IMG/VR virus record: IMGVR_UViG_3300044213_000175
Length of the DNA stretch: 64,000 nucleotides
Source of the DNA: an uncultured virus (IMG/VR IMGVR_UViG_3300044213_000175)
Taxonomy: Duplodnaviria; Heunggongvirae; Uroviricota; Caudoviricetes
Strand: one strand, 5' to 3'
This document shows positions 641 through 45,407 of the stretch, piece by piece. The position numbers and the translations under genes are program-made. Below the pieces are notes generated by a model. It searched no databases. It was not told the origin of the DNA and saw only the letters and a list, made by a program, of their open reading frames with translations. How positions within the stretch are numbered: position 1 is the stretch's first letter; every line of letters starts with the position of its first letter.

Positions 641-804
641 CTCTTGAAGAAGCCATCAAAATCAAAGAAAGTTTACTAGAACTTACTGCCGATGTAGAGA
701 CATTTAACTGGGGACCTAGTTGGGAATTCGCTAATCAACGTAAAGACGAAGCATTGACAATTATCAAGAAAGAAATCAAAAGGCTGAGAAATGATGTTAC
801 CTAA
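637..804 (+). CDS. small hypothetical protein (MTLEEAIKIK...), not in ORF track
   Basis: Manual translation, 55 aa, coupled start. Confidence 0.55.
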   Translation: MTLEEAIKIKESLLELTADVETFNWGPSWEFANQRKDEALTIIKKEIKRLRNDVT

Positions 805-1081
805 TAATTGGAATGAATTTACTGTAGAGCAACGTAATCTTTGGTTACTATCTGCTCTGAAGGAAGATTTAACTATTACTTTTACCAAAGTAGACGGTAC
901 TGAGCGTGTTATGCCATGTACCCTGCGTAGTGATGCTCTGCCCCCTGTGGCATTAGCAGAGCATCATAAAACAAAAGTATATAAGCCCGAAACTATCAGT
1001 GTTTGGTGCTTGGATAAAAACGAATGGCGAAGCTTTCGGGTTATGAATGTAATTTCGGTTAAAAAACTCGAAAATAGTTAA
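791..1081 (+). CDS. WYL_2/DUF2693-like small beta-barrel protein
   Basis: Motifs TFTKVDGTERVMPCTL and VWCLDKNEWRSFR. Confidence 0.7.
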   Translation: MMLPNNWNEFTVEQRNLWLLSALKEDLTITFTKVDGTERVMPCTLRSDALPPVALAEHHKTKVYKPETISVWCLDKNEWRSFRVMNVISVKKLENS

Positions 1082-1090
1082 TCAAAATAA

Positions 1091-1119
1091 TTGCAATTAA
1101 TTATCTACTTAGCTATAAT
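1091..1119 (+). promoter_or_regulatory. sigma70-type promoter
   Basis: TTGCAA-N17-TATAAT in an intergenic gap. Confidence 0.7.
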
Positions 1120-1163
1120 AGACAGTAACTGTTAAACACAGTAAATTTATAAGGAACTTAAAA

Positions 1164-1424: not shown

Positions 1425-1445
1425 TACAACCTGTATCCAACTAAG

Positions 1446-1468
1446 AAGGCTCTTAGGAGCCTTTTTTT
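1446..1468 (+). terminator. intrinsic terminator
   Basis: AAGGCTC-TTAG-GAGCCTT stem followed by a T run. Confidence 0.8.
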
Positions 1469-1484
1469 ATCTGTAAATATTATT

Positions 1485-2285
1485 ATGGTTACAAAATTTT
1501 CAGTTATTAGCGATTTACATTTAGAATTCGGGGATTTAGAGCTTCCCGGAGGAGAAGTGCTGATCGTTGCCGGTGATGCTTGCGAAGCTAACCGCATCAA
1601 ACCAGGATACGATGCCAATAGTTCGGAAAGATATGCAAGGTTTTTTCACGAAGAATGTGCAAAATACGACCGCGTAATTTATGTTATGGGCAATCACGAA
1701 CACTATCATGGTAGATTTGATAAAACATATAATTATCTCAAAGAGGTGCTTCCTAAAAATGTAGAGCTGCTAGAAAAGGCTTATACGGAGGTCAACGATA
1801 TTTTGGTAATAGGTGCTACCCTTTGGACCGATTTAAACGATGGTGATCCGATAACGGCAATGACGGTGAAGTCGGGTATGAACGATTACAAAGTTATCCA
1901 CAACTATTATGAACCAAAAGGATTGTACTATAAACTCACGCCAGAGGTTACTAAGGAAGATCATCAAAAGGCCAAACAGTTTATCAGTGATACCGTTGAA
2001 CAATTCCAAGATCGTCAAGTTGTGGTGGTCACACACCATAGTCCCAGTAGACTTAGTACTGCTACTATGTACCAACATGACTTCCATTTAAATGGTGGAT
2101 ATAGTAGTACCATGGAAAATTTTATTTTGGATCGCCCAAATATCAAATTTTGGATTCATGGTCATACACATGATCGATTTAGATACGAATTAGGTCAATG
2201 TACCGTTATTTGTAATCCCCGGGGCTACGTTGGGTACGAATCGCAAACAAAAACATTTGACACTACAACAGGATTTGTGCTATAG
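1485..2285 (+). CDS. calcineurin-like metallophosphoesterase
   Basis: SDLH, AGD, GNHE, THH and HGHTH motifs. Confidence 0.9.
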   Translation: MVTKFSVISDLHLEFGDLELPGGEVLIVAGDACEANRIKPGYDANSSERYARFFHEECAKYDRVIYVMGNHEHYHGRFDKTYNYLKEVLPKNVELLEKAYTEVNDILVIGATLWTDLNDGDPITAMTVKSGMNDYKVIHNYYEPKGLYYKLTPEVTKEDHQKAKQFISDTVEQFQDRQVVVVTHHSPSRLSTATMYQHDFHLNGGYSSTMENFILDRPNIKFWIHGHTHDRFRYELGQCTVICNPRGYVGYESQTKTFDTTTGFVL

Positions 2286-2312
2286 TAATTAATAATTGAG
2301 GTATTTTAAATT

Positions 2313-2732
2313 ATGAGTCAAATTTCGATAACAGATGCCGCAGGTTCCACTACTGCTACATTGGCAACAGGACCAAGTATATCTATCAGTGATAGAACCA
2401 CGGCCGGGGGCCAATGGAATACTAGCGCCTGGTACAATGGTACCGGTTATTCCATAGCCAATGACAGCGTCAGCGGATTCGATTCGAATCCGCTGAAGGT
2501 TTCGAACGCCGGGCAGCTTGCCCTTAACGGAGATAATGCCGACATTAAGATAAATGGTCAAAGTTTGTCGACTTGGATGAAAACTGTCGATCAACGATTG
2601 GCCATACTCCGTCCTGATCCTGAACTAGAAGCCGAATGGGAGGAATTGAAACAATTAAGCAATCGATATCGGGAATTGGAACAGGAAATTACCGAAAAGA
2701 TGAAAACTTGGGAAATCATTAGCAAGGAATGA
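2313..2732 (+). CDS. hypothetical protein (low-complexity N-terminus, coiled-coil C-terminus)
   Basis: ORF with GAGG upstream. Confidence 0.7.
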   Translation: MSQISITDAAGSTTATLATGPSISISDRTTAGGQWNTSAWYNGTGYSIANDSVSGFDSNPLKVSNAGQLALNGDNADIKINGQSLSTWMKTVDQRLAILRPDPELEAEWEELKQLSNRYRELEQEITEKMKTWEIISKE

Positions 2733-2947
2733 CGACCATACAATGTGTAGAGGGCGAATATCGCATATTATGGACTGCCGATGATGCTACATATGCCCAA
2801 GCTATAAATTGGATTTTTCAAACTTTTGGATATGGGTGGGGACACAGCCACAAGATTGGTGGGGAGAAACGAAATCGATACTCTATAGAATTCAAGCGGT
2901 TGTACCACGCCCAATGGTTTTTATTGAAGTGGGGATCGATAGACTGA
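2729..2947 (+). CDS. LRW-tail array member 1 (...WFLLKWG)
   Basis: Shared C-terminal motif; coupled start. Confidence 0.75.
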   Translation: MTTIQCVEGEYRILWTADDATYAQAINWIFQTFGYGWGHSHKIGGEKRNRYSIEFKRLYHAQWFLLKWGSID

Positions 2948-2959
2948 AATTCACTTTTA

Positions 2960-2968
2960 TGCTATAAT
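2960..2968 (+). promoter_or_regulatory. extended -10 element
   Basis: TGCTATAAT ending 6 nt before the ATG at 2975. Confidence 0.5.
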
Positions 2969-2974
2969 ATAGCT

Positions 2975-3142
2975 ATGACTAACGTAACTATTAACGGCAA
3001 TGCTTTCGATGCAATTGTGTGGGCAAACCAGATATTCGGTCCAGACACTTTTAAAGTAAAACCTTCGTTTCCCAACGAACTTTGGACTTTTGAATTCGAA
3101 ACAGCAAAACAAGCCACTTTATTTGCTCTAAAATGGACCTAA
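2975..3142 (+). CDS. LRW-tail array member 2 (...ATLFALKWT), not in ORF track
   Basis: Manual translation, 55 aa, with the family motif. Confidence 0.75.
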   Translation: MTNVTINGNAFDAIVWANQIFGPDTFKVKPSFPNELWTFEFETAKQATLFALKWT

Positions 3143-3402
3143 GTTTAAGTGAAGATACAATTTACGGTGTACCTTATTACACAGTTTACCCGGTGATTAC
3201 ACATGATAATGACTGGGATTTACTAGAGGACTGGTGTGTGGGTATAATGGGTTTACCAGGAGATATCTGGGAACTGAGAAGCCGGATCTGGATCCGGAAA
3301 GACCAGGCTCCCACGCCGTATGATCGTTGGTATATGAATACCAGCAAATTTTGGTTTCGTGATGAAGCCGATCGTGCTATATTCCTATTGAGGTGGGCAT
3401 AA
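3133..3402 (+). CDS. LRW-tail array member 3
   Basis: Ends FRDEADRAIFLLRWA. Confidence 0.8.
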   Translation: MDLSLSEDTIYGVPYYTVYPVITHDNDWDLLEDWCVGIMGLPGDIWELRSRIWIRKDQAPTPYDRWYMNTSKFWFRDEADRAIFLLRWA

Positions 3403-3404
3403 TT

Positions 3405-3605
3405 ATGTTAATACCATATTTCGGAAATCGCAATGACGTGATAGAATGGCTACATCAACATATAGAATACAAAACACTCTCGCCTACTGGGAGAACAGGA
3501 TTCGACAAACTACATAGTGTTGTATTCGGTGTGTATACCACACAATCTGTAGTGTATTTCAAACATAAAAAAGATGCAGTAATATTTGCCTTGAGGTGGT
3601 CATGA
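3405..3605 (+). CDS. LRW-tail array member 4
   Basis: Ends FKHKKDAVIFALRWS; start moved to the ATG after the junction. Confidence 0.8.
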   Translation: MLIPYFGNRNDVIEWLHQHIEYKTLSPTGRTGFDKLHSVVFGVYTTQSVVYFKHKKDAVIFALRWS

Positions 3606-3811
3606 TTAAGAAACAATACAGCAGATTTGATCCGGGGTATTTTAAAAACTTCATCAACTGTCATGACCCCGAAGATAATATAGAAGAGGCATTAAAACCC
3701 TATAAAGCCACGATTGCCAAAAACAAATATAAAAGACCAAACTGGATCAAATTAAACATCAAGTGGCACGATGAACAACTATACATGATGTTTGTGTTGA
3801 GGTATAGTTAA
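3602..3811 (+). CDS. LRW-tail array member 5
   Basis: Ends MMFVLRYS; ATGA overlap. Confidence 0.8.
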   Translation: MIKKQYSRFDPGYFKNFINCHDPEDNIEEALKPYKATIAKNKYKRPNWIKLNIKWHDEQLYMMFVLRYS

Positions 3812-4056
3812 TGTTTATTCACACTTACGAAACAACTAAAGATTTTCTGACAGACAAGCCACGCAAGTATGTTGCGGCTTTTGAAAGCAAAAGAGAAAAC
3901 AGAGCAGAAATCACTCAATGGTGCTATAAAGCATTTGGGCCTCCTGGTTTCAATCATCTTACATTTGAAACACGATGGAAAGATAGTATTAACTGGGGAG
4001 AAGTATATTTCAGTCGGAAAGAAGACCTTGAGTGGTTCGTATTGAAGTGGTCATGA
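3811..4056 (+). CDS. LRW-tail array member 6
   Basis: Ends FSRKEDLEWFVLKWS. Confidence 0.8.
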   Translation: MFIHTYETTKDFLTDKPRKYVAAFESKRENRAEITQWCYKAFGPPGFNHLTFETRWKDSINWGEVYFSRKEDLEWFVLKWS

Positions 4057-4271
4057 TTACATTTAGCCTTAACTCTATTAACCAAGATAAACTAGACTGG
4101 CTATATGCCAATGTTGGCCACGGCGGCAGATGGTTATACAACAAAATAACTGATCGAGTTGAACCTGAAGATGGCGACAACTGGGGGTATTATTTTGATG
4201 GTCCTAGTTGGTACAAGATATGTTTCTTAGATGAAAAGAAAGCAATACTGTATTCGTTGAGGTGGGCATGA
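4053..4271 (+). CDS. LRW-tail array member 7
   Basis: Ends FLDEKKAILYSLRWA. Confidence 0.8.
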   Translation: MITFSLNSINQDKLDWLYANVGHGGRWLYNKITDRVEPEDGDNWGYYFDGPSWYKICFLDEKKAILYSLRWA

Positions 4272-4516
4272 GCTTCGTTGATACTAACATAATTATAAAA
4301 CAGCTTAATAAATGTTATCTGGACTACGATCCCACATGGCAAACTAAGTTTGACGAGCACCGAGTTCTTTCATTTAAGTCTTATATAGAACAACATGGTG
4401 GCCTGAGATTAGTTTTTATTCGAAGCATTAAGAACGGAAAGTACGGATACGAACTCCAACAAGTTGCAATCGTAGACGAACCTAAATTTACAATGTGGAT
4501 GCTGAGGTGGTCATGA
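4268..4516 (+). CDS. LRW-tail array member 8
   Basis: Ends DEPKFTMWMLRWS. Confidence 0.8.
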   Translation: MSFVDTNIIIKQLNKCYLDYDPTWQTKFDEHRVLSFKSYIEQHGGLRLVFIRSIKNGKYGYELQQVAIVDEPKFTMWMLRWS

Positions 4517-4866
4517 ACGGTAATATCACAGTTCAAGGGCAGATGATTGCTCTACTTAGAAAAAATATACCCAAACTTATGGCACAGGATATTGTAGGTG
4601 TACAGCCTATGGGTACCGGTACTGGAAGAATATTTATGGTGCGGCCTGACTACTACACAAGCAAGTATAAATTCAGCCGTGCCAAATGGTATGTGGCAGA
4701 GTTTGATGACAAGAACTATGCTGATGTGGATGAATGGTGTGCAGAACAGTTTGGGCCGCATCCACGAAGACCAGATGCTTGGAGTCGTTGGCATCATACT
4801 TACCACAATAGGATTCATTTTGCCTATGAAAAAGATTATATATTGTTTATGTTGAGGTGGTCATGA
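4513..4866 (+). CDS. LRW-tail array member 9, with N-terminal major-capsid (Gol-like) segment
   Basis: N-terminal LRKNIPKLMAQDIVGVQPM; ends FAYEKDYILFMLRWS. Confidence 0.8.
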   Translation: MNGNITVQGQMIALLRKNIPKLMAQDIVGVQPMGTGTGRIFMVRPDYYTSKYKFSRAKWYVAEFDDKNYADVDEWCAEQFGPHPRRPDAWSRWHHTYHNRIHFAYEKDYILFMLRWS

Positions 4867-5075
4867 AGTTTGATTTAACTAAAAAACAAAATTTGGAAAT
4901 GTTCCGTCGTGCCTGGGCTGCTGCCGGTGCAAGGCCAGGTCTCAGTGTGCCAGAGAGTTCTGCACTCTGGTTCAAACGATTTGGTTGTCGAATGACTTAT
5001 GGTCGAAGCGGGTTTGTGCTGGCCGAATTTTCAGATGAAAAACGGGCAGTGGAATTTTTGCTGAGGTGGTCATGA
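4863..5075 (+). CDS. LRW-tail array member 10
   Basis: Ends FSDEKRAVEFLLRWS. Confidence 0.8.
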   Translation: MKFDLTKKQNLEMFRRAWAAAGARPGLSVPESSALWFKRFGCRMTYGRSGFVLAEFSDEKRAVEFLLRWS

Positions 5076-5308
5076 CTTACTTGCCGCGAAACGGACAATA
5101 TGAACTGTTCACTTATCGTGGACGGACACATTGTTTTGATGAACCAGGTGTTGAAATTGTCAGCACTCCTGAAATGTTTGCTTGGCTTCGTAGTCAACCA
5201 GAAGAGCAGTGTCGTCCATTTGATCACAGTGATGTGGCTTTTTATTTGACTCCGAATATGTATTTGATATGGAAATTGAGGTGGGCTTATGAGCACAGTA
5301 GGGTATAA
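5072..5308 (+). CDS. LRW-tail array member 11 (extended tail)
   Basis: Ends LIWKLRWAYEHSRV. Confidence 0.75.
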   Translation: MTYLPRNGQYELFTYRGRTHCFDEPGVEIVSTPEMFAWLRSQPEEQCRPFDHSDVAFYLTPNMYLIWKLRWAYEHSRV

Positions 5309-5582
5309 GGGCAACGTAGTATTGTGTCAAGGGGCAACATTCGCTCCTTACATTCCAGCCGTAGAATCCAATTTTAAGATTTTGGACCAGTCCTTGGTTG
5401 ATGGTGAGCAGTGGTATACTGTCAGTTGCCTGCGAGAAACCAGCAAATGGCTAAGGGAAACTTATCAGGACAGTGAAGATAAACTTTGGTTCCAAAATAT
5501 TGATGAAAAATGGCATATAAACTTCAACGTGTTTGACATACATGTAAACATCTATACTTTGTTAGCATTGAAGTGGTCATAA
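5289..5582 (+). CDS. LRW-tail array member 12, with N-terminal capsid-like segment
   Basis: Starts TVGYKG...FAPYIP; ends YTLLALKWS. Confidence 0.8.
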   Translation: MSTVGYKGNVVLCQGATFAPYIPAVESNFKILDQSLVDGEQWYTVSCLRETSKWLRETYQDSEDKLWFQNIDEKWHINFNVFDIHVNIYTLLALKWS

Positions 5583-5583
5583 T

Positions 5584-5847
5584 ATGTGGCAAATAAAATT
5601 TTATAGACATCAAATGTTACAGGATCGTTATAGAAATTTAGAGACGGGTACGGTAGTAAGTGTTGAATACAATTGGGTTCCTACTTTTGTATTAATGCCA
5701 CACAAAACTATTGGTAATAAGTATGTGTGGTTTAAGAAAGTTTATATGCGTAGAGTATGGGTTTATACAGGATTTGTTGATGAACCAGAAACACAATATG
5801 CAGAACTATTTGATATTATAACCAACGGATATGAAATACTGGAATAA
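5584..5847 (+). CDS. array-embedded hypothetical protein lacking the LRW tail
   Basis: ORF between two family members. Confidence 0.7.
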   Translation: MWQIKFYRHQMLQDRYRNLETGTVVSVEYNWVPTFVLMPHKTIGNKYVWFKKVYMRRVWVYTGFVDEPETQYAELFDIITNGYEILE

Positions 5848-6043
5848 AGACAAACGAATTCGACAACATCACTGGCACCGAGTAGAACGTGGAAATGTCT
5901 TGGGTTTCTTGGGTTACAATGAGACCAAACGCATTCTACAACTACATGAAAGCCCGGGCAGGTTTTATTTGTACTATGGCTCAAGAACCATATGGTTTGA
6001 ACGTGAACAAGATGCCACGTGGTTTTTGTTGAGGTGGGCATGA
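5831..6043 (+). CDS. LRW-tail array member 13
   Basis: Ends FEREQDATWFLLRWA. Confidence 0.8.
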   Translation: MKYWNKDKRIRQHHWHRVERGNVLGFLGYNETKRILQLHESPGRFYLYYGSRTIWFEREQDATWFLLRWA

Positions 6044-6327
6044 TACTGTCAAGGCCCGAATTTGCTGATTACTTTAACTCGTTGAAACCCGGGTTGGGTA
6101 ATCCAGATAGTCCGCTATGGGAACCCGAAGATCAAATTGACAGTCAATGGTTTGTATGTGTTAAACCATTGGATGTTACTCGATACAAGTGGTCATATTG
6201 GGACTGGTGCAATGCTCATTTGAATGGCAGAGTTCGTTGCTATAGCAGCGACTCCGATAATGGCAAAGAGTGGTGGGGATTTACAGACAAACAGGATATT
6301 GTATTATGGACTTTAAAGTGGACGTAG
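6040..6327 (+). CDS. LRW-tail array member 14
   Basis: Ends FTDKQDIVLWTLKWT. Confidence 0.8.
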   Translation: MILSRPEFADYFNSLKPGLGNPDSPLWEPEDQIDSQWFVCVKPLDVTRYKWSYWDWCNAHLNGRVRCYSSDSDNGKEWWGFTDKQDIVLWTLKWT

Positions 6328-6548
6328 GAAATGTTTTACCGGGGGATCATCCTGCCGCCGAGAATGCAGCTCGTTGGTTGCGTGAGCATTTTGACATTCC
6401 AGTACAGTTTACATTGTTTGATGAGTTCGAACAATATTTCGATTGTAGAATAGATGTAGATGATCGCAAAGATAATTGGATGATGCCCAACAAAATCATA
6501 TTTGAAAACCGCGCAGATTTAATGATGTTTATATTGAGATGGTCATGA
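6306..6548 (+). CDS. LRW-tail array member 15 (start 6306 or GTG 6318)
   Basis: Ends FENRADLMMFILRWS. Confidence 0.75.
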   Translation: MDFKVDVGNVLPGDHPAAENAARWLREHFDIPVQFTLFDEFEQYFDCRIDVDDRKDNWMMPNKIIFENRADLMMFILRWS

Positions 6549-6799
6549 TACATTACAAAGAAGTAAAGTATGGAGAAACAGTAATCAAGTTTCCAAAACT
6601 CTACCGTGTGGTTTATGCTCATACTACGGATGGTGTGATGGTGGCATATCAACGCAGTGTAAAAGATCATCTGGTTGACCAGTGGCTTAAAGAAAACTGT
6701 CATGGTCGTTACTATCATAGTCCGGGATACCTAACAGAGAAGTTCATTGAGTTTGAAGATGGCCAAGATGCTACATTATTTGTGTTGAGGTGGGTATGA
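6545..6799 (+). CDS. LRW-tail array member 16
   Basis: Ends FEDGQDATLFVLRWV. Confidence 0.8.
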   Translation: MIHYKEVKYGETVIKFPKLYRVVYAHTTDGVMVAYQRSVKDHLVDQWLKENCHGRYYHSPGYLTEKFIEFEDGQDATLFVLRWV

Positions 6800-6966
6800 A
6801 AAACTTAATATCAATCGACTGGCATTGTCGAGAAGAATTCTGGGATTGGTGTGTTGACGCAGGTTGTGCACCCGAATATCAGTCCAATATTCGAGATTCG
6901 AGTTATGGTATCTGGCATATACCCGACAAAAAGGTGTATGCTTTAGCACTGTTGAGATGGGAATGA
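6796..6966 (+). CDS. LRW-tail array member 17 (...YALALLRWE), not in ORF track
   Basis: Manual translation, 56 aa; ATGA overlaps at both ends. Confidence 0.75.
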   Translation: MKNLISIDWHCREEFWDWCVDAGCAPEYQSNIRDSSYGIWHIPDKKVYALALLRWE

Positions 6967-7172
6967 TACCACTACCGTACTGCGAAATAACAGATAGACA
7001 TGGACTCCACTATGCAAGGCTGTGGTGTGAAGAACTATGGGGTAAAAGTCGGGATAATTATAATCAAGACGGTACGTGGTCTGTGTATTGGGGAGGTATT
7101 GCTAACACTTATCAATGGCATTTTGCTACTGAAGAACAACGAACTTGGTTTATACTAAAATGGAAAATATAA
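6963..7172 (+). CDS. LRW-tail array member 18
   Basis: Ends FATEEQRTWFILKWKI; start at the junction ATG. Confidence 0.75.
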   Translation: MIPLPYCEITDRHGLHYARLWCEELWGKSRDNYNQDGTWSVYWGGIANTYQWHFATEEQRTWFILKWKI

Positions 7173-7459
7173 TGAAAACTCTTAAAGATGCTGCTTATGA
7201 TGTCGAGGATGAACTAATCAAATCCTTCCAAGAGGAACTAGATTGGAGAGTTAGAATGGACACTTTTGTGGCTGATAAATATACTCAAATTACAATGCCT
7301 TGGTCGGGGTGGATGGATGCTCCCAAAGCGCAAGAAATTCGTGATTGGTGTCGGACTAATCTTACCGATCATTTTCTCGGCAGGGGCCCAGACTGGTTGT
7401 TTAAAAATGAAAAAGATGCTATACTATTTAAATTAAGATGGTATGGCCAAGAGCATTAA
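7172..7459 (+). CDS. LRW-tail array member 19
   Basis: Ends FKNEKDAILFKLRWYGQEH. Confidence 0.8.
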   Translation: MKTLKDAAYDVEDELIKSFQEELDWRVRMDTFVADKYTQITMPWSGWMDAPKAQEIRDWCRTNLTDHFLGRGPDWLFKNEKDAILFKLRWYGQEH

Positions 7460-7697
7460 ATTCAAAGTACACGTATGGCACGAGCTGCTAAAGAGTCTTA
7501 AGGAAACTTATAAGACTAAGCCCAGTGTTTTGTCTATTTCATACACAATGCGTAGAGAACTAGGTTTTACCGTCAGATATCATAGTTTCTTCGATGAATC
7601 AAATGGGCAGTTTGAAGAAGTTATATATTTGGACTTCTTTGATGATCATTTAGAAACATTGTTTAGATTAAAATATGCGGAGTATTTAAATGGCTAA
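7443..7697 (+). CDS. LRW-tail array member 20 (divergent)
   Basis: Ends FFDDHLETLFRLKY... Confidence 0.7.
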   Translation: MAKSIKFKVHVWHELLKSLKETYKTKPSVLSISYTMRRELGFTVRYHSFFDESNGQFEEVIYLDFFDDHLETLFRLKYAEYLNG

Positions 7698-7962
7698 TCT
7701 ATTAGAATATTTTACAAAAACTGCCTACAAACCAAAATACGTTATAGGTGATAGGGTTTTTGGTCGATGGAACAAAATTCCTTTTATAGGTACTGTGGGC
7801 AATGATACTATAATTTCAAATACGCAAGGCCCGCAGATCAGTATACTGTTGGATTTGCCTATTGCCGTAAAAGGTCAGACTCATAACATTTTAATTGTCA
7901 AACATAAGGATGTCAAACTGTTAAAGTCGTTTGAAAATGAATCTAAACAAAAAATTAAATAA
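7690..7962 (+). CDS. hypothetical protein
   Basis: ORF with GGAG upstream. Confidence 0.7.
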   Translation: MANLLEYFTKTAYKPKYVIGDRVFGRWNKIPFIGTVGNDTIISNTQGPQISILLDLPIAVKGQTHNILIVKHKDVKLLKSFENESKQKIK

Positions 7963-7978
7963 TTGTTTGGACAAAGGT

Positions 7979-8548
7979 ATGAAAAATAAACCCAGTAAAA
8001 GCAACGATCGCTATTTTCAAAAAAATAATTACATAGAACGCTGCAAGCGAAATGGACAATTGCCCAGGGAAGACTATCTAAATATGTACGATAACTTAGA
8101 AAAAAAGAACGATGAGCAGGAACAGGATCCCGAGTGGGCTGTGGATAACTTGGAAGCTGACCTAAGAACTACCGACTGGATTCTCGAAAAAGTAAGAACA
8201 AATACGGTCTATGCACAAAACCTTTATGCAGCAATGTGTAACACCGAGTTTATTAAAAATGATGTATGGCCGTTATTGATCGACAAAAAATGGCGTTGCA
8301 GTTGGAGGAGTGCGGGCGGCATTATTGCCGATATGAGACAAGAAGGTGACTACATGAATTGGTATTGTTCTGGTATAATTGAATATTGTTCAGAAGACCA
8401 ACTTGCCACTATGAGTCCCGAAGAAGTAGATGCATATCAAAAGATGAGGGCCACCACAGTACCTGAAGGTGTTGTCACCGATGAAATTCGTAACGATTTG
8501 TTAAAATTGGGTTGGTTGGTAATTCAAGATAGCAATTTAGACATTTAA
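7979..8548 (+). CDS. phage hypothetical protein
   Basis: Long ORF; start placed at the ATG after AAAGG. Confidence 0.7.
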   Translation: MKNKPSKSNDRYFQKNNYIERCKRNGQLPREDYLNMYDNLEKKNDEQEQDPEWAVDNLEADLRTTDWILEKVRTNTVYAQNLYAAMCNTEFIKNDVWPLLIDKKWRCSWRSAGGIIADMRQEGDYMNWYCSGIIEYCSEDQLATMSPEEVDAYQKMRATTVPEGVVTDEIRNDLLKLGWLVIQDSNLDI

Positions 8549-21471: not shown

Positions 21472-22058
21472 AAAACAAAATTATTTTAGTTGATGCCGAC
21501 GGCGTTTTGCTAGATTGGGAATATGCCTTTGGTATTTGGATGGAACAACACGGGTTCAACAAAGTCGATGGATGGCCGTTTATATACCGAATCGGCGATC
21601 GATATGGTATACCGGTTGAGCAAGGAGATAAACTTGTAAAAATATTTAACGAAAGTGCAGCCATTGGGTTTTTACCTGCGCTTCGTGATAGTATGTATTA
21701 TGTTAAACGATTGCACGAAGAACACGGTTATGTATTCCACTGCATCACCAGTCTCAGCACCGATATCAATGCGAATCGACTCAGAGAGATGAATCTAAAT
21801 AAATTATTCGGTAAAACTGCATTTGAAAAAGTAGTTTGTTTAAGTACAGGGGCAGATAAAGATGATGCATTGATGCCATATAAAGATACTGGTTGTTGGT
21901 GGATCGAAGATAAGCCCGAAAATGCAGAAACAGGCCAACGACTTGGGTTAAATGCATTGATTGTAGAGCACGGTCATAATATGAATGCTGCAACAGATAT
22001 ACCTAAAGTTAAAAACTGGCGTGAAATTTACGAGATTATAACCGGAGCCAGCCACTAA
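21468..22058 (+). CDS. HAD-superfamily nucleotidase-like protein
   Basis: ILVDADGVL and WIEDKPEN. Confidence 0.85.
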   Translation: MKNKIILVDADGVLLDWEYAFGIWMEQHGFNKVDGWPFIYRIGDRYGIPVEQGDKLVKIFNESAAIGFLPALRDSMYYVKRLHEEHGYVFHCITSLSTDINANRLREMNLNKLFGKTAFEKVVCLSTGADKDDALMPYKDTGCWWIEDKPENAETGQRLGLNALIVEHGHNMNAATDIPKVKNWREIYEIITGASH

Positions 22059-23083
22059 TTCTTACCACATTGCTCATCGCATTTAAATAATCTGCCGTTG
22101 GCATAAGAAGTTTTACTCCAGCTTTCTTCGACAGAGTTAAACCAGTTAATTGCTGCTTCGATGCCTACTGCTATGGCATTATTATTCAAAACCATATCTT
22201 TAATAAAAATGTTATCTCGTTGCCACGGATGTTGATATTCTAATTTAGGATAGAATCCTAACCAACAACAGGGATATACTTCTCCATTCGCAGCGATATA
22301 TATTTCTTTTTTCTGTTTTGTTTGGCAGTTAACTATTTGTTTTATGGGAATAGATTTATATTCAGATAATCTATTGACGGGCTTAAACTGAATCGCTGTC
22401 CATTCTTTCCAAATGTCCACCGTTTTGGGATATTCTACATTTATAAAATGTGGATCGTGTCCCAATTTGTGTGTAAAATTTCCATTGCGATCGTATACTG
22501 GGCCCGAATCTCGACCGGCATCTATTAGATCGAATTGAAAAAACCCCAACTCTCTACTTAAGCGACGACATTCATCAATTTGATGAATATTATGATCAAA
22601 TTTAATCATTTTCCATACCGCACGGCCACCCGAGGAAATAAAAAGTTTAGCATTGTTAATTATTCGTTGCCAGCTGGTATTTTTTCGATATAATGTATGC
22701 GTATTTTCTAATCCGTCAAGTGCAAAATTCACTTTTATCGCCAATTGACCCAACCGTTGCCATAGGGTAGAATTTCCACCAGACCCATTTGTGTTAATGA
22801 CAATTTTTAATTTGGGATTACACAAAAGAAAATACTCTACAATAGCCAAATTATCTTTTGCTGTAACAAAATCCCCAAAGTTACCATTGATTAATATATT
22901 TTTTAATTGTCGTAAAAACGGGGGTGTGAATATACGTTTGGCTTCGACTAGTGTCATGTCTCGAACTTCAAAGCCAAGATCTTCATCGTACCCAGAAGTA
23001 TTTCTGGGGCATTTGGGGCAAGATGCATTACATCGCGTACTTATTTCTAAATGTACGTTTTTAATTTGATTGTAGTCAATCAT
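22055..23083 (-). CDS. radical SAM protein with C-terminal twitch/SPASM-like domain
   Basis: CNASCPKC; IAANGEVYPCC. Confidence 0.88.
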   Translation of the reverse strand: MIDYNQIKNVHLEISTRCNASCPKCPRNTSGYDEDLGFEVRDMTLVEAKRIFTPPFLRQLKNILINGNFGDFVTAKDNLAIVEYFLLCNPKLKIVINTNGSGGNSTLWQRLGQLAIKVNFALDGLENTHTLYRKNTSWQRIINNAKLFISSGGRAVWKMIKFDHNIHQIDECRRLSRELGFFQFDLIDAGRDSGPVYDRNGNFTHKLGHDPHFINVEYPKTVDIWKEWTAIQFKPVNRLSEYKSIPIKQIVNCQTKQKKEIYIAANGEVYPCCWLGFYPKLEYQHPWQRDNIFIKDMVLNNNAIAVGIEAAINWFNSVEESWSKTSYANGRLFKCDEQCGKN

Positions 23084-29849: not shown

Positions 29850-32147
29850 ATGTCACTAAACAGCCTTCCTGAAGTAGATAAAATCGTCGAACTAGCGACC
29901 CAACTAGCAACAGATAAAAATCACACATACTTAACATTAGAACATTTATCAGTGGTGATGATAAATTACAACACCCTGGGTAATCTTTGTCAGAGTTTCG
30001 GGGTCGATACTGAATCATTGACCAAAGAACTGTCTGACTATTTAGATAATCAATCAGGACTGGTTAGTAAAAATCATGATGTTGTGCCTAAAAAAACAAG
30101 GACGTTAGAGAGAGTTTTCAATCGCGCATTGACCCAAGTATTGTTCAGTGGACGACAACATTTACTTCCTATCGATTTGATGCTGAGTATTGTTGACGAA
30201 GATACTAGTTATGCTTCATATCTATTAAGAAAATATGGAATCGAGCGACACGCTCTTATTAATTTTTACAATAAAGAAAATAAACCCGCTAGCACAAAGA
30301 AAAAAGTACAAAATCAAGCAGACACAATTCTTAATAAGTATTGTGATAATCTGAATCTCAAAGCCGAGGAAGGGAAGATCGATCCTGTTATTGGCCGAGA
30401 TACAGAAATTACGGAAATAGTCGAAGTATTGGCTAAACGCAATAAATCAAATATTTTAATGGTTGGCGATCCGGGAGTTGGTAAAACGGCGATTGCAGAA
30501 GGACTGGCACTTAAAATCATTAATCAAGAAGTCCCCGAGTATCTACTAGATCACACTGTGTATAATTTAGATATTGGTAACTTGTTGGCTGGTAGCAAGT
30601 ATCGTGGTGAATTCGAAGAAAAGTTCCAAGACGTTATGGAAGCATTAGTCGAAAAAGGCAAATGCATTTTATTCATCGACGAAGCACATACTATGCGAGG
30701 TGCAGGTTCAGGTAGTAACAGCAGTCTCGATTTCAGCAATATGATTAAACCTGCATTGACTAAAGGCAACCTCAAAGTTCTTGCAAGTACTACTTGGGAA
30801 GAATATACACAATCATTTGAAAAAGATCGTGCATTGATGCGTAGATTTTATAGAATGACGGTTGAAGAACCTACTCCCGAAATTGCCAAAGAAATTTTGC
30901 GTGGTCTTAAAGAATATTTCGAAGAATTCCATGGCGGCAACATCAGTGATGAAGCTATCAACTCAGCCGTAGATCTTTCGGTCCGATATCAGACTGATAA
31001 ACGTCTACCAGACAAGGCCATCGATCTATTAGATGCTAGCATGGCCAAACTTAAATTAGCTGGCAATGATTTTGTGCTATTAAAAAGTCATATCATCGAT
31101 AGCCTAAGTAAGTTTACAAAAATTCCAGTGCATCAACTTGATAATGAAGTTACTAAGAGTTTAGAGACTTTAGAGCCCAATATTAAAGGTAAATTATACG
31201 GGCAAGACCAAGCAGTAGAACAAGTATTGGATAAAATCTACGTAAGTCGTGCAGGGTTAAAAGCATTGAATAAGCCAGTTGGTAGTTATCTATTCTTAGG
31301 CCCGACTGGCACAGGTAAAACTGAATTAGCCAAATTACTGGCAGAAAACCTGGGTATGAAATTATTGCGATATGACATGAGTGAATATCAAGAAAAACAT
31401 ACTGTTGCGAAATTGATTGGCGCTCCACCGGGATATGTTGGGTACGACGACGGGAATCTGGGTGGCGGTTTACTGATCAGCGAAGTGGAAAAGAATCCCA
31501 ACTGCATCATATTATTCGACGAAATTGAAAAAGCACATCCCGATGTAAGTAATTTGTTATTGAGTTTAATGGACGAAGGGGTGATCACTAGCAGTAATGG
31601 CAAGAAAGCGGACTGTAGAAATAGTATTGTTATCTTAACCAGCAACTTGGGTGCTGCGGATAACGATAAAAATTCTATTGGATTCGGAGGGTTTGAAAAA
31701 GAAGGAGAAGATGATCGTGCCGTTAAAGATTTCTTTAAACCAGAATTTCGCAATCGTTTAGACGGTATTGTCAAATTTAACAAATTACAAAAGCCTAGTA
31801 TTGTTAAAATTGTTGATAAATTCGTAGCAGAGATGAATGACTTACTCAGCGATAAACACATTTATATTCAATTAAAACCTACTGCCATTGATGAAATCAT
31901 TGAAAAAGGGTACGATGCTAAAATGGGTGCGAGACCGCTGGCACGTAAAATAAACGAGCTAATTAAAACCCCATTGGCTAAAAAAATCTTATTCGAAAAC
32001 TTGTCTAATTGTACAGTTAATGTAGAATGGGTCGACGGGTATTTCGAATTTGACATTAGGCAAGATGAACACGCACTATTTCCGGTCAAGAGTGCTGTAG
32101 ATGAGGATGGTTATGTTGTCGTGGACAAGTTTGAACCCAACGTGTAA
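29850..32147 (+). CDS. clpA: ClpA-like AAA+ unfoldase
   Basis: Clp N-domain, two Walker A motifs (GDPGVGKT, GPTGTGKT) and an IGF loop. Confidence 0.9.
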   Translation: MSLNSLPEVDKIVELATQLATDKNHTYLTLEHLSVVMINYNTLGNLCQSFGVDTESLTKELSDYLDNQSGLVSKNHDVVPKKTRTLERVFNRALTQVLFSGRQHLLPIDLMLSIVDEDTSYASYLLRKYGIERHALINFYNKENKPASTKKKVQNQADTILNKYCDNLNLKAEEGKIDPVIGRDTEITEIVEVLAKRNKSNILMVGDPGVGKTAIAEGLALKIINQEVPEYLLDHTVYNLDIGNLLAGSKYRGEFEEKFQDVMEALVEKGKCILFIDEAHTMRGAGSGSNSSLDFSNMIKPALTKGNLKVLASTTWEEYTQSFEKDRALMRRFYRMTVEEPTPEIAKEILRGLKEYFEEFHGGNISDEAINSAVDLSVRYQTDKRLPDKAIDLLDASMAKLKLAGNDFVLLKSHIIDSLSKFTKIPVHQLDNEVTKSLETLEPNIKGKLYGQDQAVEQVLDKIYVSRAGLKALNKPVGSYLFLGPTGTGKTELAKLLAENLGMKLLRYDMSEYQEKHTVAKLIGAPPGYVGYDDGNLGGGLLISEVEKNPNCIILFDEIEKAHPDVSNLLLSLMDEGVITSSNGKKADCRNSIVILTSNLGAADNDKNSIGFGGFEKEGEDDRAVKDFFKPEFRNRLDGIVKFNKLQKPSIVKIVDKFVAEMNDLLSDKHIYIQLKPTAIDEIIEKGYDAKMGARPLARKINELIKTPLAKKILFENLSNCTVNVEWVDGYFEFDIRQDEHALFPVKSAVDEDGYVVVDKFEPNV

Positions 32148-41630: not shown

Positions 41631-44287
41631 GCTTCGTTGATGCTTTATACGATAGACAAAGAGATAAAATTCACGTTGTAGAACGTGTAAATGGTGAACG
41701 GGTATATCAAGAATATCCCGCGAACTACATATTTTATTATGATGACCCAAAAGGTAAACACCATACAATTTATGGTACCTCGGTAACTAAATTCTCTACT
41801 CGCAATAGCAAAGAATTTCATAAAGAATTAAAAATTCAAAGCGGGAAAAGGATTTGGGAAAGCGATTTTAAACCGGTACTCAGATGCTTGGAGGATAATT
41901 ATCTCAATGCAGAACCGCCCAAATTACATACCGCATTTTTCGACATTGAAGTAGATTTTGATCCTGTACGTGGGTTTAGTCCGACGTCAGACCCATTTAA
42001 TAAAATTACTGCAATTTCTGTTTATTTGGATTGGTTAGATAAACTAGTGACAATGGTTATACCACCAAAAAGTATGTCTTGGGAGACTGCTGAAGAAATT
42101 TCAGCAAAATTTGACGATACATATATTTTCGAACGGGAAGAAGATCTATTAGATACCTTTTTAAATTTAATCGATGATGCAGATATTTTAAGTGGCTGGA
42201 ACAGCGAAGGGTATGATATTCCCTATACCATTGGTCGTATTACTCGAGTTTTAAGTAAGGATGATACCAGACGTTTATGTCTATGGGGGCAGTTTCCTAA
42301 ACAACGAGAATTTGAACGATTTGGCGCAACTAATATCACTTTCGATTTGATCGGTCGTGTGCATTTGGACTATATGCAACTATATCGTAAGTATACCTAT
42401 GAAGAACGACATAGTTATAGTTTGGATGCTATCGGCGAGTACGAACTTGAAGAAAGAAAGACAGCCTATGAAGGCACATTAGATCAACTTTATAATAAAG
42501 ACTTTGAAACATTTATTGCATATAACAGACAAGATACACGTCTGTTAGCAAAACTGGATAGAAAACTACGTTTTCTAGATTTGGCAAATACCATTGCTCA
42601 CGATAACACGGTGTTATTGCCGACAACAATGGGTGCCGTAGCAACTACAGAGCAGGCAATTATAAATGAAGCACATAGTCAAGGACTGGTCGTTCCTAAT
42701 CGAAAAGGCCGAGAAGAAGACGTCGACACCCAGGCAGCAGGTGCCTACGTTGCTTACCCAAAACGGGGTATGCACGAATGGATCGGCGCGATTGACATCA
42801 ACTCGCTCTATCCCTCGGCTATTCGAGCCCTTAACATGGGACCGGAAACTATCGTCGGACAACTCCGACAAACAATGACCGATAATTATATTAAAGATAA
42901 AATAAATTCAGGCGATAGCTTTGCGGCGGCATGGGAAGGATTGTTCGGCAGTTTAGAATACGATGCTGTAATGCGCGGAGATCCCGGAGTAGAAATTACT
43001 ATAGATTGGGAGGTCGGCGGCAGCGATATATTAAGCGCATCCAACGTATGGCGTTTAATCTTCGACAGTAACCGTCCTTGGACTTTAAGTGCAAATGGCA
43101 CCATATTCACCCACGAACGAAAAGGCATTATTCCAGGTTTGCTAGAACGGTGGTATGCAGAACGTAAACAAATGCAGGCTAAACTTAAAGAATCGACTAC
43201 TACAGAAGATCAAGAGTATTGGGACAAACGTCAGTTAGTTAAGAAGATTAACTTGAACAGTCTCTACGGTGCTATTCTTAATCCGGGCTGTAGATTTTTC
43301 GATCAGCGAATCGGTCAATCCACTACATTGACTGGCAGACTTATTGCCAAACATATGGATAGTTTCGTCAATGAAGCAATTACCGGACAGTATGATCACG
43401 TAGGCGATGCTGTAATTTATGGTGATACTGACTCTGTTTATTTCAGTGCGTGGCCTGCTATTAAAGCGGATGTCGAAGCCGGGCGAATGGAATGGAATAA
43501 AGATATCTGTATTCAAGTATATGACAACATAGCAGATCAAGTCAATGAATCATTCCCGGCATTTATGGAAAAGGCTTGTCATTGCCCGAGACAGAACGGC
43601 GCGATCATTAAAGGCGGTCGTGAAATTGTTGCATCAAAAGGCCTTTTTATTAAAAAGAAAAGATATGCTGTTCTTATCTATGATAAAGAAGGTAAACGAG
43701 TCGATGTAAAAAATTCTCCCGGCAAAGTAAAAGCCATGGGATTAGATTTAAAAAGGTCAGACACTCCCAAAATTGTACAAGACTTTTTAAGTGATATTCT
43801 ATTAGATGTATTGACCGGTGCACAAAAAGAAGAAATCATCGAAAAAGTAAAGGATTTTAAATATCAATTCCAAAAGAGACCTCCCTGGGAAAAGGGCACA
43901 CCCAAACGTGTAAACAACTTGACCAAGTACACCGCGGCAGAAGTTGCACAAGGCAAAGCAAATATGCCCGGCCACGTTCGTGCTGCAATGAATTGGAACA
44001 ATCTACGCAGAATGCACAGTGATAACTACTCAATGCAAATCGTAGATGGTATGAAAGTCATTGTATGCAAAGTTAAGGATAATCCATTGGGGTATACTAG
44101 TGTTGCGTACCCGACAGATGAGACACACATACCTGCATGGTTTAAAAACTTGCCGTTCGATGACAATAATATGGAAGATACTATTGTAGATCAAAAAGTA
44201 GAAAACTTGTTAGGTGTGCTCGAATGGAACTTATCCGAAGCCACTGACATTAGATCAACATTTACTACATTGTTTAGCTTTGAATGA
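41627..44287 (+). CDS. family B DNA polymerase
   Basis: Exo DIE, GWNSEGYD, DINSLYPS, KINLNSLYG, YGDTDS and KKRY. Confidence 0.97.
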   Translation: MSFVDALYDRQRDKIHVVERVNGERVYQEYPANYIFYYDDPKGKHHTIYGTSVTKFSTRNSKEFHKELKIQSGKRIWESDFKPVLRCLEDNYLNAEPPKLHTAFFDIEVDFDPVRGFSPTSDPFNKITAISVYLDWLDKLVTMVIPPKSMSWETAEEISAKFDDTYIFEREEDLLDTFLNLIDDADILSGWNSEGYDIPYTIGRITRVLSKDDTRRLCLWGQFPKQREFERFGATNITFDLIGRVHLDYMQLYRKYTYEERHSYSLDAIGEYELEERKTAYEGTLDQLYNKDFETFIAYNRQDTRLLAKLDRKLRFLDLANTIAHDNTVLLPTTMGAVATTEQAIINEAHSQGLVVPNRKGREEDVDTQAAGAYVAYPKRGMHEWIGAIDINSLYPSAIRALNMGPETIVGQLRQTMTDNYIKDKINSGDSFAAAWEGLFGSLEYDAVMRGDPGVEITIDWEVGGSDILSASNVWRLIFDSNRPWTLSANGTIFTHERKGIIPGLLERWYAERKQMQAKLKESTTTEDQEYWDKRQLVKKINLNSLYGAILNPGCRFFDQRIGQSTTLTGRLIAKHMDSFVNEAITGQYDHVGDAVIYGDTDSVYFSAWPAIKADVEAGRMEWNKDICIQVYDNIADQVNESFPAFMEKACHCPRQNGAIIKGGREIVASKGLFIKKKRYAVLIYDKEGKRVDVKNSPGKVKAMGLDLKRSDTPKIVQDFLSDILLDVLTGAQKEEIIEKVKDFKYQFQKRPPWEKGTPKRVNNLTKYTAAEVAQGKANMPGHVRAAMNWNNLRRMHSDNYSMQIVDGMKVIVCKVKDNPLGYTSVAYPTDETHIPAWFKNLPFDDNNMEDTIVDQKVENLLGVLEWNLSEATDIRSTFTTLFSFE

Positions 44288-44288
44288 T

Positions 44289-45407
44289 ATGAAAAAAATA
44301 ATCCCACTGATAAATGTTAATGCATCAGTGTATCAACAACGTCAATTTCTTACCGCCAATGATGTCGCCGACGACCATCTATATGCATACACTACCAGGA
44401 ACATGACCTTTGATAAAGACTTAAATCTAAAAGGTCAGTATTGCTATCATCCATTTAATACAATCACTGTCGATGGATTCGGCGATATTTATATGTGTAT
44501 ATGCCAAGCATGGCTTCCAGTCAGCGTGGGCAAAATTTGGGAATTTGATTCGTTTGAAGCAATAGTAGAATGTGCAAGGGCTCGAGAAATCCAATCTAGT
44601 ATACTAGACGGTACTTATAAATATTGCGACCATAATACTTGTAGTATCATTAAAGAAGGCGAGCTAAGTAATAGGATTAATCACCGACCCGATACCATCA
44701 ATTGGATTAACTTTAGTTTGGATAATAGTTGTAATTTAACTTGTCCCAGTTGCAGAACAGAATTTAAATTTATAAGTGACGGTATCGAATATGATCGTCG
44801 AATGAAAATTGTCGATCATATGGTAAATCTATTAGAAAATCATAATCACTGGATTAAGTTTACATTGGCAGGAGATGGGGATCCTTTCGCCAGTTTAATC
44901 TATAGACAGCTGATGTCAAAATTAGATCTATCTAAGAATAATAATACGGTAGAAATAGAAATAATTACCAATGGAGTATTGGCCAAAGCACATTGGCATA
45001 AACTGTCTGGTATTCACAAAAACTTGGTCCGAACAAAAATAAGTTTTGACGCAGGAACAGAATCTGTTTATAATATTACTCGAAGGGGCGGAGATTGGAA
45101 TAAATTATTGGAAAGTTCAACGTTCCTTGCTAACTGGAAACAAAAAACATATAGTAACATGATATTAACTGCAAATTTTGTTGTGCAAACTGCAAATTAT
45201 CAAGATATGCCGGCATACGTTGAGCTATGCGATAGTTTAGGGTTTAACGAAATTAATTTTCAAAAAATCGTCGATTGGGGAACTTTTGATAATTTCAAAG
45301 ATCAAGCTGTTTGGATGGATAGTCACCCATTGTATCAGGATTTTTTGTCAGTGTTGCAACATCCTAGTTTAAATAATAAAAAAATTAACTTTACAAATTT
45401 AAAATGA
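44289..45407 (+). CDS. radical SAM protein with N-terminal Cys-rich domain
   Basis: CNLTCPSC, GDPF; N-terminal CYHPF...CIC. Confidence 0.85.
   Translation: MKKIIPLINVNASVYQQRQFLTANDVADDHLYAYTTRNMTFDKDLNLKGQYCYHPFNTITVDGFGDIYMCICQAWLPVSVGKIWEFDSFEAIVECARAREIQSSILDGTYKYCDHNTCSIIKEGELSNRINHRPDTINWINFSLDNSCNLTCPSCRTEFKFISDGIEYDRRMKIVDHMVNLLENHNHWIKFTLAGDGDPFASLIYRQLMSKLDLSKNNNTVEIEIITNGVLAKAHWHKLSGIHKNLVRTKISFDAGTESVYNITRRGGDWNKLLESSTFLANWKQKTYSNMILTANFVVQTANYQDMPAYVELCDSLGFNEINFQKIVDWGTFDNFKDQAVWMDSHPLYQDFLSVLQHPSLNNKKINFTNLK

Follow-up and report, generated by a model that had tools for sequence, protein, structure and literature searches.

An operon-like chain of about twenty old paralogs with a dual-coding junction in a T4-related jumbo phage

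Organization of the array

A stretch of 64,000 nucleotides from an uncultured virus of the Caudoviricetes (IMG/VR record IMGVR_UViG_3300044213_000175), referred to here as the window, carries an array of small genes at 2729-7697 (+). The array consists of 21 consecutive, tightly packed open reading frames (ORFs) encoding proteins of 55-117 aa, with starts at an ATG that overlaps or follows the previous stop, and all 21 frames are intact. Twenty of the 21 proteins, which we call m01 to m21, carry L-[RK]-[WY] near the C-terminus, with 1-10 residues after it; the exception is m13 (5584-5847). The locus is an operon-like chain of about 20 old paralogs, with a junction that codes at two levels, rapid turnover of gene content and fusions to fragments of capsid protein. 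The original prediction, made from the sequence without database searches, had described 21 back-to-back ORFs of this size, twenty of them with a shared C-terminal tail and often with an internal W-[CL]...[FY]G segment. Count and sizes were reproduced with the overlapping starts, the tail family exceeded shuffled sequences in profile tests, and the internal segment proved real, its Trp (in helix 1 of the predicted fold) being invariant in a 66-sequence family alignment (A3). Starts taken from the longest ORF are misleading here, as the real start at most junctions is the ATG within ...TCATGA; independent database gene calls (P0002, P0003, P0011, P0013) use identical starts.

The window is part of a T4-related freshwater jumbo phage of roughly 350 kb. 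It encodes a T4-type clamp loader, a family-B DNA polymerase, a MazG-like pyrophosphatase, a metallophosphoesterase and a ClpA-like protease. Judged by DNA polymerase, the closest cultured relatives are Sinorhizobium phage Phosso (469 kb, 51.7% identity) and Agrobacterium phage Atu_ph07 (47.4%), with uncultured IMG/VR contigs nearer still (G001, 87%; G003, 70%). A genome size of about 350 kb is estimated for these two contigs because their 108 kb and 209 kb correspond to CheckV completeness of 31% and 58% respectively. Near-identical DNA to the array stretch was found in sequencing runs labelled freshwater metagenome, with no RNA run among those listed, and a megablast of 2300-8000 against 50,697 phage records returned no match. 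In what follows, L denotes related loci (L028 standing for Phosso, PV764938.1), G denotes relative contigs from IMG/VR and P denotes database proteins.

Similarity between the array proteins is weak in pairwise comparison, only 7 of the 21 having a partner at E < 1e-3. Searched with a hidden Markov model (HMM) of the 20 tail-bearing members, the window's 586 six-frame ORFs yield all 20 at E ≤ 1.8e-6 and no further match (next best E 0.47). When each member was scored with a model built from the others, 17 of 20 outscored all 4,200 shuffled sequences; m01 was marginal (13.8 bits against 14.1 for the best shuffle), and m11 and m21 failed. An iterated profile with relatives added recovers 19 of 20, missing m21, which is a probable member by a motif pattern visible by eye, without statistical support.

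Junctions between the genes

The DNA that encodes the tail reads TTG AGG TGG TCA TGA or a near variant of it. In its full form, TTGAGGTGGTCATGA encodes L-R-W-S-stop and at the same time supplies a Shine-Dalgarno-like GAGGTGG and the ATG of the following gene, which overlaps the TGA stop. GAGGTGG is complementary to the anti-Shine-Dalgarno region of 16S rRNA. At 17 of the 20 junctions the genes overlap, by 1-22 nt, and the stop-start overlap is ATGA (4 nt) in 10 cases and TAATG in 2. The motif GAGGT lies 4-9 nt ahead of the next ATG at 10 of 20 tails, and the longer GAGGTGG occurs nine times in the 64 kb, each time at an array tail. By its sequence features the array looks like an operon of the translationally coupled type, with both stop-start overlaps and a Shine-Dalgarno site inside the upstream gene. 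In these two respects it resembles translational coupling in other polycistronic operons; the difference is that here one 15-nt junction recurs from paralog to paralog, and its sequence also specifies conserved residues of the fold. The host presumably reads such signals, since a Shine-Dalgarno-like motif precedes about half (25 of 50) of the other window genes.

Codon usage in the tails departs from that of the rest of the window. The tail Arg residues (n=13) are encoded by AGG in 10 cases, AGA in 3 and CGN in none, whereas the Arg codons of 19 long window genes (n=321) are AGG in 3.4% and CGN in 64% of cases, which makes the AGG excess in tails significant at a binomial p = 6e-13. Tails with Lys (n=7) use AAG four times and AAA three times. 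The alternation of Arg and Lys therefore amounts to a purine-rich A-R-R codon, as tails use AGG/AGA or AAG/AAA; in relatives, AGG or AAG is found in 36 of 46 tails. In favour of a role at the protein level, the top database matches also keep L-R-W, though in a search whose profile was built from the same clade. In Phosso, the tails examined have no such DNA signal, and the family tail there is relaxed to F-K-L-x-hydrophobic, with Arg in 4 of 15 and Trp in 6 of 15. The preference for AGG in the window tails points to selection at the protein and DNA levels at once. Our reading is that the Leu and the aromatic residue probably belong to the fold, while the strict R-W spelling in the lineage of the window would be kept by the ribosome-binding function.

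Predicted fold of the shared domain

Two of the 20 members were modelled with AlphaFold2 from non-overlapping alignments, m09 from the 66-sequence family alignment and m15 from its own orthologs only (19 sequences). The predicted core of m09 (residues ~55-117) has a block predicted local distance difference test (pLDDT) score of 82-95, its N-terminal part scoring below 50, and contains a strand (60-63), a helix (66-80), two strands (93-96 and 100-103) and a final helix (106-116). The m15 model (pLDDT 73, predicted template modelling score 0.67) has a strand at 37-41, a helix at 50-60, strands at 65-71 and 76-81 and a helix at 85-94, and adds an N-terminal strand and helix. Compared by element order, the two models, of members that are 19% identical, have the strand-helix-strand-strand-helix arrangement in common. 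Among their top 50 structural neighbours in BFVD, 23 are common to both, nearly all of them named 'uncharacterized protein, uncultured Caudovirales phage'. The shared part is thus predicted to be a C-terminal two-layer domain of about 60 residues, preceded by an N-terminal extension that varies between members (0-60 residues).

Positions conserved across the family comprise the Trp of helix 1, the F-x-F of strand 3 and the D-A-x2-F-x-L-x-W of helix 2; as these are aromatic or hydrophobic residues or helix caps, they look like a core and not like an active site. Loops, surfaces, charge and extensions vary between members. In both models the L-R-W tail sits inside the last helix (block pLDDT 94 in m09). 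A free C-terminal docking peptide or degron was accordingly rejected as an explanation of the tail, given this position, the way its strictness tracks the DNA signal and its relaxation in Phosso. The constant C-terminal element that had been proposed as a docking tail is instead, in both models, the end of the domain's last helix, with a strictness in this lineage that lies largely at the DNA level.

The same evidence bears on the second idea of the original prediction, in which the members would be adaptors that dock on a common partner. Docking would be through the constant tail, and the partner could be a phage Clp-type protease or a hetero-oligomeric ring. The C-terminus is indeed conserved, the window contains a gene for a ClpA-like ATP-dependent protease, two-domain forms exist in the database (P0020, P0022, P0031, P0058), and translational coupling is common for subunits of complexes. 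Against these points stand the position of the tail inside the last helix in both models, a strictness that follows the DNA signal and lapses in Phosso, and the 5-10 extra residues that follow the Trp/Tyr in 4 of 20 members. We regard such adaptors as the least probable of the explanations considered here.

Comparison with known structures gave nothing specific. Foldseek against the PDB found nothing at E ≤ 1e-3, a profile search against PDB sequences reached a best E of 0.064, which is no match, and the PDB neighbours from a wide VIA search are generic two-layer alpha/beta domains, namely KH, ACT, RRM, secretin N-domains and EF-G domain III. Neighbours of the KH, RRM, ACT and EF-G domain III type (Z 4.2-6.1, where by the tool's own note a Z below 8 may reflect a common arrangement only) would suit a domain that binds RNA or DNA, with the paralogs as gene-specific regulators of translation or transcription. 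This phage group is also rich in translation-related genes; Phosso, for example, has IF-1 and tRNA genes beside family members. On the other side, no G-x-x-G or RNP-like motif was seen in the alignments, the conserved residues belong to the core and not to the surface, and the isoelectric points (pI) of the members run from 4.5 to 10.3, with 11 of 20 acidic (pI < 6.5). Nucleic-acid binding is highly unlikely in our estimate. This spread of charge on one conserved small scaffold agrees well with a diversified paralog library, as had been predicted.

Extent of the family

When 1.84 billion cluster representatives were searched with the family profile, 3,622 matched at E ≤ 1e-3 (best 3e-10), so that the proposed check, an HMM search of phages with the C-termini, led to a large phage family. 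Nearly all of the 150 representatives listed are 49-161 aa long. Of 19 database proteins inspected, 14 end no more than 3 residues past the tail Trp/Tyr, 4 have longer tails, 4 (the two-domain forms named above) contain two copies of the domain, and one (P0038) is a partial false match. No fused forms of 206-2000 aa were found, which is weak evidence. Among cultured relatives, Phosso has 37 family matches in several clusters, all annotated hypothetical, and Atu_ph07 has 3 weak ones, the best also annotated hypothetical; the profile found no matches in T4, Vibrio phage 2.275.O or Yersinia phage fHe-Yen9-04. IMG/VR relatives have 19 (G001), 12 (G002), 5 (G003) and 2 (G004) matches, and in G005 the array extends past locus L007. 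ESM Atlas clusters of the family are 90-97% viral, with no named neighbour except in a Gp23-bearing cluster. The family is apparently restricted to phages.

We treat P0038 (1,176 aa) as a non-member, since only its helix-1 motif matches. It consists of a helicase (ResIII, DEAD, Helicase_C) followed by seven repeats of ~90 residues, in which the first helix, W-C-x-Q-N-F-G, resembles helix 1 of the family and nothing else in it.

Searches with Pfam, PHROGs and NCBIfam models of the 21 window proteins or 66 family members gave, apart from noise below threshold, only the Gp23 match of m09. Family members showed no enzyme family or motif, no immunity family of the kind associated with polymorphic toxin systems (SUKH, Imm) had a Pfam match in either set, and the flanking ORFs scanned included no toxin-like neighbour. 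The passages of PMC7824862 examined do not mention the LRW-tail family, and full-text searches of the literature, together with passages of PMC11242549, gave no description of it. The family is thus undescribed, lacking a Pfam, PHROGs or NCBIfam model and a PDB sequence match, in keeping with the earlier statement that the array could not be assigned to a described system. Among lineage-specific expansions of small domains in jumbo phages, the roughly 35 zinc-ribbon copies of Bacillus phage G, as described in passages of Iyer et al. (2021, PMC7824862), are comparable in that dozens of copies occur and their function is only guessed; the array domain differs in being an alpha/beta domain without metal ligands.

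Conservation and turnover of array content

For 18 of the 20 members the best BLAST match lies in the array of another phage, the best pair within the window reaching only 38 bits (29% identity). By this measure the copies are evidently old paralogs. G001 has orthologs of 8 family members and of the non-member m13, at 39-71% identity compared with 87% for DNA polymerase, and their order there (m07, m20, m08, m12, m13, m10, m14, m11, m15) differs from that in the window. Array content thus appears to turn over rapidly. Individual members are nevertheless recognizable through their own conserved residues: m15 has 20 member-specific invariant columns in 19 orthologs, m16 has 22 in 9 orthologs, and ortholog groups keep their own invariant loops, which speaks for purifying selection on distinct functions. 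(A single-sequence search with m15 gave no confirmed relative; the alignment of its orthologs did.) In smaller relatives, the pair m15-m16 is the only part of the array found, and its position amid nucleotide-metabolism genes is fixed. Locus L005 of a smaller T4-like relative (8847-10786), for instance, has m15-m16 directly between nrdB-like and glutaredoxin-like genes, names that were read from the translations.

Contigs from four freshwater runs were compared with the window at 85% likeness over short sides, a comparison in which a lack of coverage in runs X2 to X4 does not mean that the sequence is absent. Likeness to other cassettes sets in 35-55 nt ahead of a cassette's stop and extends as far as that stop (3605, 4056, 4866, 6548). 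A 6,125-nt contig from run X2 matches 5604-7201 with 16 differences and is then unlike the window upstream, with a cassette tail and ATGA at the break. These contigs reveal that cassettes have a 3′ box in common and that the array exists in at least one other arrangement; no recombination mechanism is shown by them.

Such observations could also be explained if the conserved 3′ box let selfish or neutral cassettes recombine and persist in a hyperplastic region, most copies adding little to fitness. This would account for content and order that differ between phages with 87%-identical DNA polymerases, for similarity breakpoints at cassette ends and for the X2 contig with its cassette tail at the point of divergence. 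It sits poorly with members that are kept as orthologs across 70-87% DNA polymerase identity and have many invariant residues of their own, with 21 of 21 intact frames, and with a pair that is fixed beside nucleotide-metabolism genes in smaller relatives. We consider an array of mainly selfish or neutral cassettes very improbable.

The suggested comparison of array content among close relatives found that both content and order differ. A picture of recent or hypervariable copies had to be given up, as these are old paralogs of which about half have orthologs in related phages. The part of the original prediction that stands is a diversified paralog library on one scaffold, without a free docking tail; the anti-defence or host-interaction role that it suggested is plausible. 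Its proposed refutations were the lack of a shared fold or similarity and a match to a known family; instead, a shared fold is predicted for a 19%-identical pair from independent alignments, and no characterized family matches.

Transcription signals

There are two promoter-like candidates at or before the array (Table 1). The first, upstream of the 139-aa gene that precedes m01, agrees with the sigma-70 consensus at 11 of 12 positions and has an extended -10 element; the second ends 6 nt before the ATG of m02, whose mRNA would be leaderless or nearly so if this candidate is used. From the two consensus matches we infer early transcription by host polymerase. The T4 late-promoter motif TATAAATA is not enriched, with 4 sites in the window against 9.2 expected and none in the array, and the phage may use a late promoter of other than the T4 type.

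Capsid protein fragments

Residues 8-54 of m09 match positions 5-51 of the 376 positions of Pfam PF07068 (Gp23) at E 8e-10, with 39 bits against a cut-off of 24.4. Its residues 2-47 align to T4 gp23 85-131 (43% identity, 40 bits) and also to Phosso capsid protein 73-121. Because only about 47 of the 376 Gp23 positions are matched and the rest is the unrelated small family domain, m09 is not a capsid protein: what it has in common with gp23 is the conserved N-arm, fused to the family domain instead of the capsid fold. This fusion is kept in the L012 and G005 orthologs. Of 31 longer representatives, 5 have the fusion as well (3 with scores over the cut-off), and an ESM Atlas cluster of 113 members has PF07068 on 13%. 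The other 20 array proteins have no PF07068 hit at E ≤ 0.1.

In m12, residues 4-35 align to Phosso capsid protein 340-371 with 25.8 bits, the maximum among 200 shuffled capsid sequences and 21 queries being 25.0, and residues 3-22 align to T4 gp23 435-454 (50% identity over 20 residues). The N-terminus of m12 has no Pfam hit, and a tblastn search with 44 aa of it against phages found no match at E ≤ 1. We treat the capsid likeness of m12 as a weak and marginal lead. This C-terminal fragment of the capsid protein is also borne by a family member in Phosso (113923-114303), where it matches Pfam positions 305-354 at E 6.6e-6.

Phosso also has an open frame at ~182.3-182.86 kb (L028) that starts with a second version of the capsid N-arm, 41% identical to residues 83-123 of the Phosso capsid protein, and whose C-terminal part is unrelated to the LRW domain; the annotated coding sequence, 182439-182855, is shorter than the open frame.

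These fusions raise an alternative in which the family as a whole acts on or mimics the major capsid protein, by modulating head assembly, by riding into the head, or as decoys and competitors for host factors or immune sensors. The above-threshold match of m09, the persistence of its fusion in orthologs, longer representatives and the ESM Atlas cluster, the resemblance of m12 to the C-terminal part of the Phosso capsid protein as well as that of T4 and the Phosso member with the same fragment all favour a link to the capsid. The core of the Gol region would fall within the stretch matched by m09. In passages of PMC3014915, Gol is described as the gp23 region of highest conservation and as a peptide that binds EF-Tu. 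The fragments are however confined to 2 of 20 members, m12 being marginal, and the other 18 extensions match nothing; additionally, the Phosso N-arm fragment also occurs on an unrelated C-terminal part and so may be a module with a role of its own. A capsid-linked function of the family is in our view unlikely.

A more specific and distinctly less probable version holds that the LRW domain is a small stable carrier displaying peptides copied from conserved structural proteins of the phage, which would make the array a set of molecular mimics. Made before the real capsid protein, the mimics would occupy host factors or immune sensors that recognize capsid segments, such as the N-arm with its EF-Tu-binding Gol-like region or the C-terminal Y-K-G...P-Y-V strand, and by way of the chained junction phages could exchange one mimic for another when hosts alter their sensors.

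Features of the array and neighbouring genes

Coordinates of the array genes, the promoter candidates and further features of the window are given in Table 1. The WYL_2 ORF belongs to a group of small genes upstream of the array, and the ClpA-like protease is a conceivable common partner only.

Table 1. Genes and signals of the array and other features of the window. Bits are leave-one-out HMM scores.
Feature	Coordinates	Strand	Description
WYL_2 ORF	791..1078	+	96 aa; WYL_2 Sm-like SH3 domain (PF10902, E 9.8e-12, above cut-off)
Promoter candidate 1	2257..2286	+	sigma-70-like; TTGACA, 18 nt, TG-n-TATAGT
139-aa gene	2313..2732	+	not a family member; stop overlaps ATG of m01 (ATGA); no PHROG at 1e-5; Pfam sub-threshold only
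m01	2729..2947	+	72 aa; tail LKWGSID; leave-one-out marginal; iterated HMM 3e-5
Promoter candidate 2	2940..2968	+	promoter-like; TAGACT, 17 nt, TG-n-TATAAT
m02	2975..3142	+	55 aa; minimal member, core domain only; tail LKWT; 24.3 bits against 12.3 for best shuffle
m03	3133..3402	+	89 aa; tail LRWA; 20.9 bits
m04	3405..3605	+	66 aa; tail LRWS; 3′ end is TTGAGGTGGTCATGA; 27.5 bits
m05	3602..3811	+	69 aa; tail LRYS; 14.9 bits against 10.8 for best shuffle
m06	3811..4056	+	81 aa; tail LKWS; 25.1 bits; pairs with m09 at 6e-8
m07	4053..4271	+	72 aa; tail LRWA; L011 ortholog 53% identity
m08	4268..4516	+	82 aa; tail LRWS; L011 ortholog 50% identity; database call P0002
m09	4513..4866	+	117 aa; capsid N-arm copy residues 2-47, family domain residues ~55-117
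m10	4863..5075	+	70 aa; tail LRWS; orthologs P0009, L011:8917-9126
m11	5072..5308	+	78 aa; tail LRWAYEHSRV, extended because the usual stop is out of frame; leave-one-out fail, 5.2 bits; iteration 1e-7; L011 ortholog 54% identity
m12	5289..5582	+	97 aa; tail LKWS; residues 3-35 resemble capsid C-terminal conserved strand region
m13	5584..5847	+	87 aa; non-member, without tail; 2.0 bits; kept beside m12 ortholog in L011 (71% identity over 59 residues to L011:7624-7860); weaker relative in L007
m14	5831..6043	+	70 aa; tail LRWA; 25.3 bits; L011 ortholog 66% identity
m15	6040..6327	+	95 aa; tail LKWT; most widely conserved member; full-length orthologs in 12/15 IMG/VR loci and in database proteins
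m16	6306..6548	+	80 aa; tail LRWS; conserved neighbour of m15 in relatives
m17	6545..6799	+	84 aa; tail LRWV; 25.1 bits
m18	6796..6966	+	56 aa; tail LRWE; 12.5 bits against 11.0 for best shuffle; database call P0003
m19	6963..7172	+	69 aa; tail LKWKI; 22.0 bits (scored on longer ORF starting 6864)
m20	7172..7459	+	95 aa; tail LRWYGQEH; 20.3 bits; L011 ortholog 40% identity
m21	7443..7697	+	84 aa; tail LKYAEYLNG; leave-one-out fail, 3.6 bits; not recovered by iterated HMM at 1e-3; probable member by motif pattern
Radical-SAM-like protein	22058..23083	-	phrog_21308, E 7e-18
ClpA-like ATP-dependent protease	29850..32144	+	765 aa; phrog_4871, E 1e-241
Radical-SAM-like protein	44214..45404	+	phrog_21308, E 3e-9

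Proposed function and implications

The reading that we prefer, tentatively and with slightly less than even confidence, is that the array is a single operon of about 20 old paralogs that encode non-enzymatic binding proteins with member-specific surfaces, probably made together and early, and acting on host or defence targets. Binding is suggested by the pattern of conservation. The genes would be linked for translation, with the last codons of each supplying a Shine-Dalgarno-like site and the overlapping ATG of the next, so that each cassette would carry the start signal for whatever gene follows. Because each cassette carries the next start signal, whole cassettes could be gained, lost or reordered without breaking expression. 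The proteins would probably be produced early from a sigma-70-type promoter, and each member would have a separate target, of host or phage, to bind in the service of host takeover or counter-defence; two of them would display segments copied from the phage's major capsid protein.

Several observations weigh against this interpretation or limit it. First, the family matches no characterized relative that would point to a function, and the best VIA Z values (6.1 for m09, 5.7 for m15) lie under the tool's meaningful level and are generic fold matches. Second, membership in the family is not equally firm throughout: with the tail removed, only 8 of 20 members still beat all 4,000 shuffles, so the tail carries much, though not all, of the detectable family signal, and the membership of m01, m11 and m21 appears soft. 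Third, m16 orthologs keep the Trp and the Lys/Arg though the downstream gene has its own ribosome-binding site; K-W in these tails thus also reflects the protein, and the DNA reading by itself is insufficient. Fourth, promoter-like sites in 1-10000 are not in excess (40, against 35.3 +/- 5.8 in shuffles). Finally, stable and distinct functions would account for old paralogs that are conserved one by one no less well than an arms race would.

The nearest described parallel comes from the hyperplastic regions of T4-type phages, with their PeSL (promoter-early stem-loop) cassettes as presented in parts of Arbiol et al. (2010, PMC2839356). Both concern small, non-essential-looking genes in variable regions of T4-related genomes; in both, a short conserved boundary sequence carries an expression signal, and relatives differ there by whole-gene insertion, loss and reordering. 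According to the same parts of that source, a PeSL is an intergenic promoter with a terminator and the genes between PeSLs are unrelated ORFans, whereas the boundary in the array is the coding end of a helix, without intergenic space, that would act on translation, and the array genes are paralogs of one family. An intergenic promoter with a stem-loop terminator of the PeSL type was not seen in the array, where only the two promoter-like sites at or before it and no array-wide terminators were found.

The junction is a natural case of dual coding, in which the same 15 nt finish a helix, provide a putative ribosome-binding site and hold both a stop and a start codon. This dual coding would explain the apparent constancy of the tail and offers a plug-and-play rule for gene cassettes. 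With thousands of sequence clusters, and at least 5 kb in each such jumbo-phage contig, a large block of jumbo-phage 'dark matter' collapses into one predicted fold. The members with capsid fragments point to capsid mimicry as a testable function, and the 37 copies in cultured Phosso, a phage of the harmless soil bacterium Sinorhizobium meliloti, put the question within reach of ordinary genetics.

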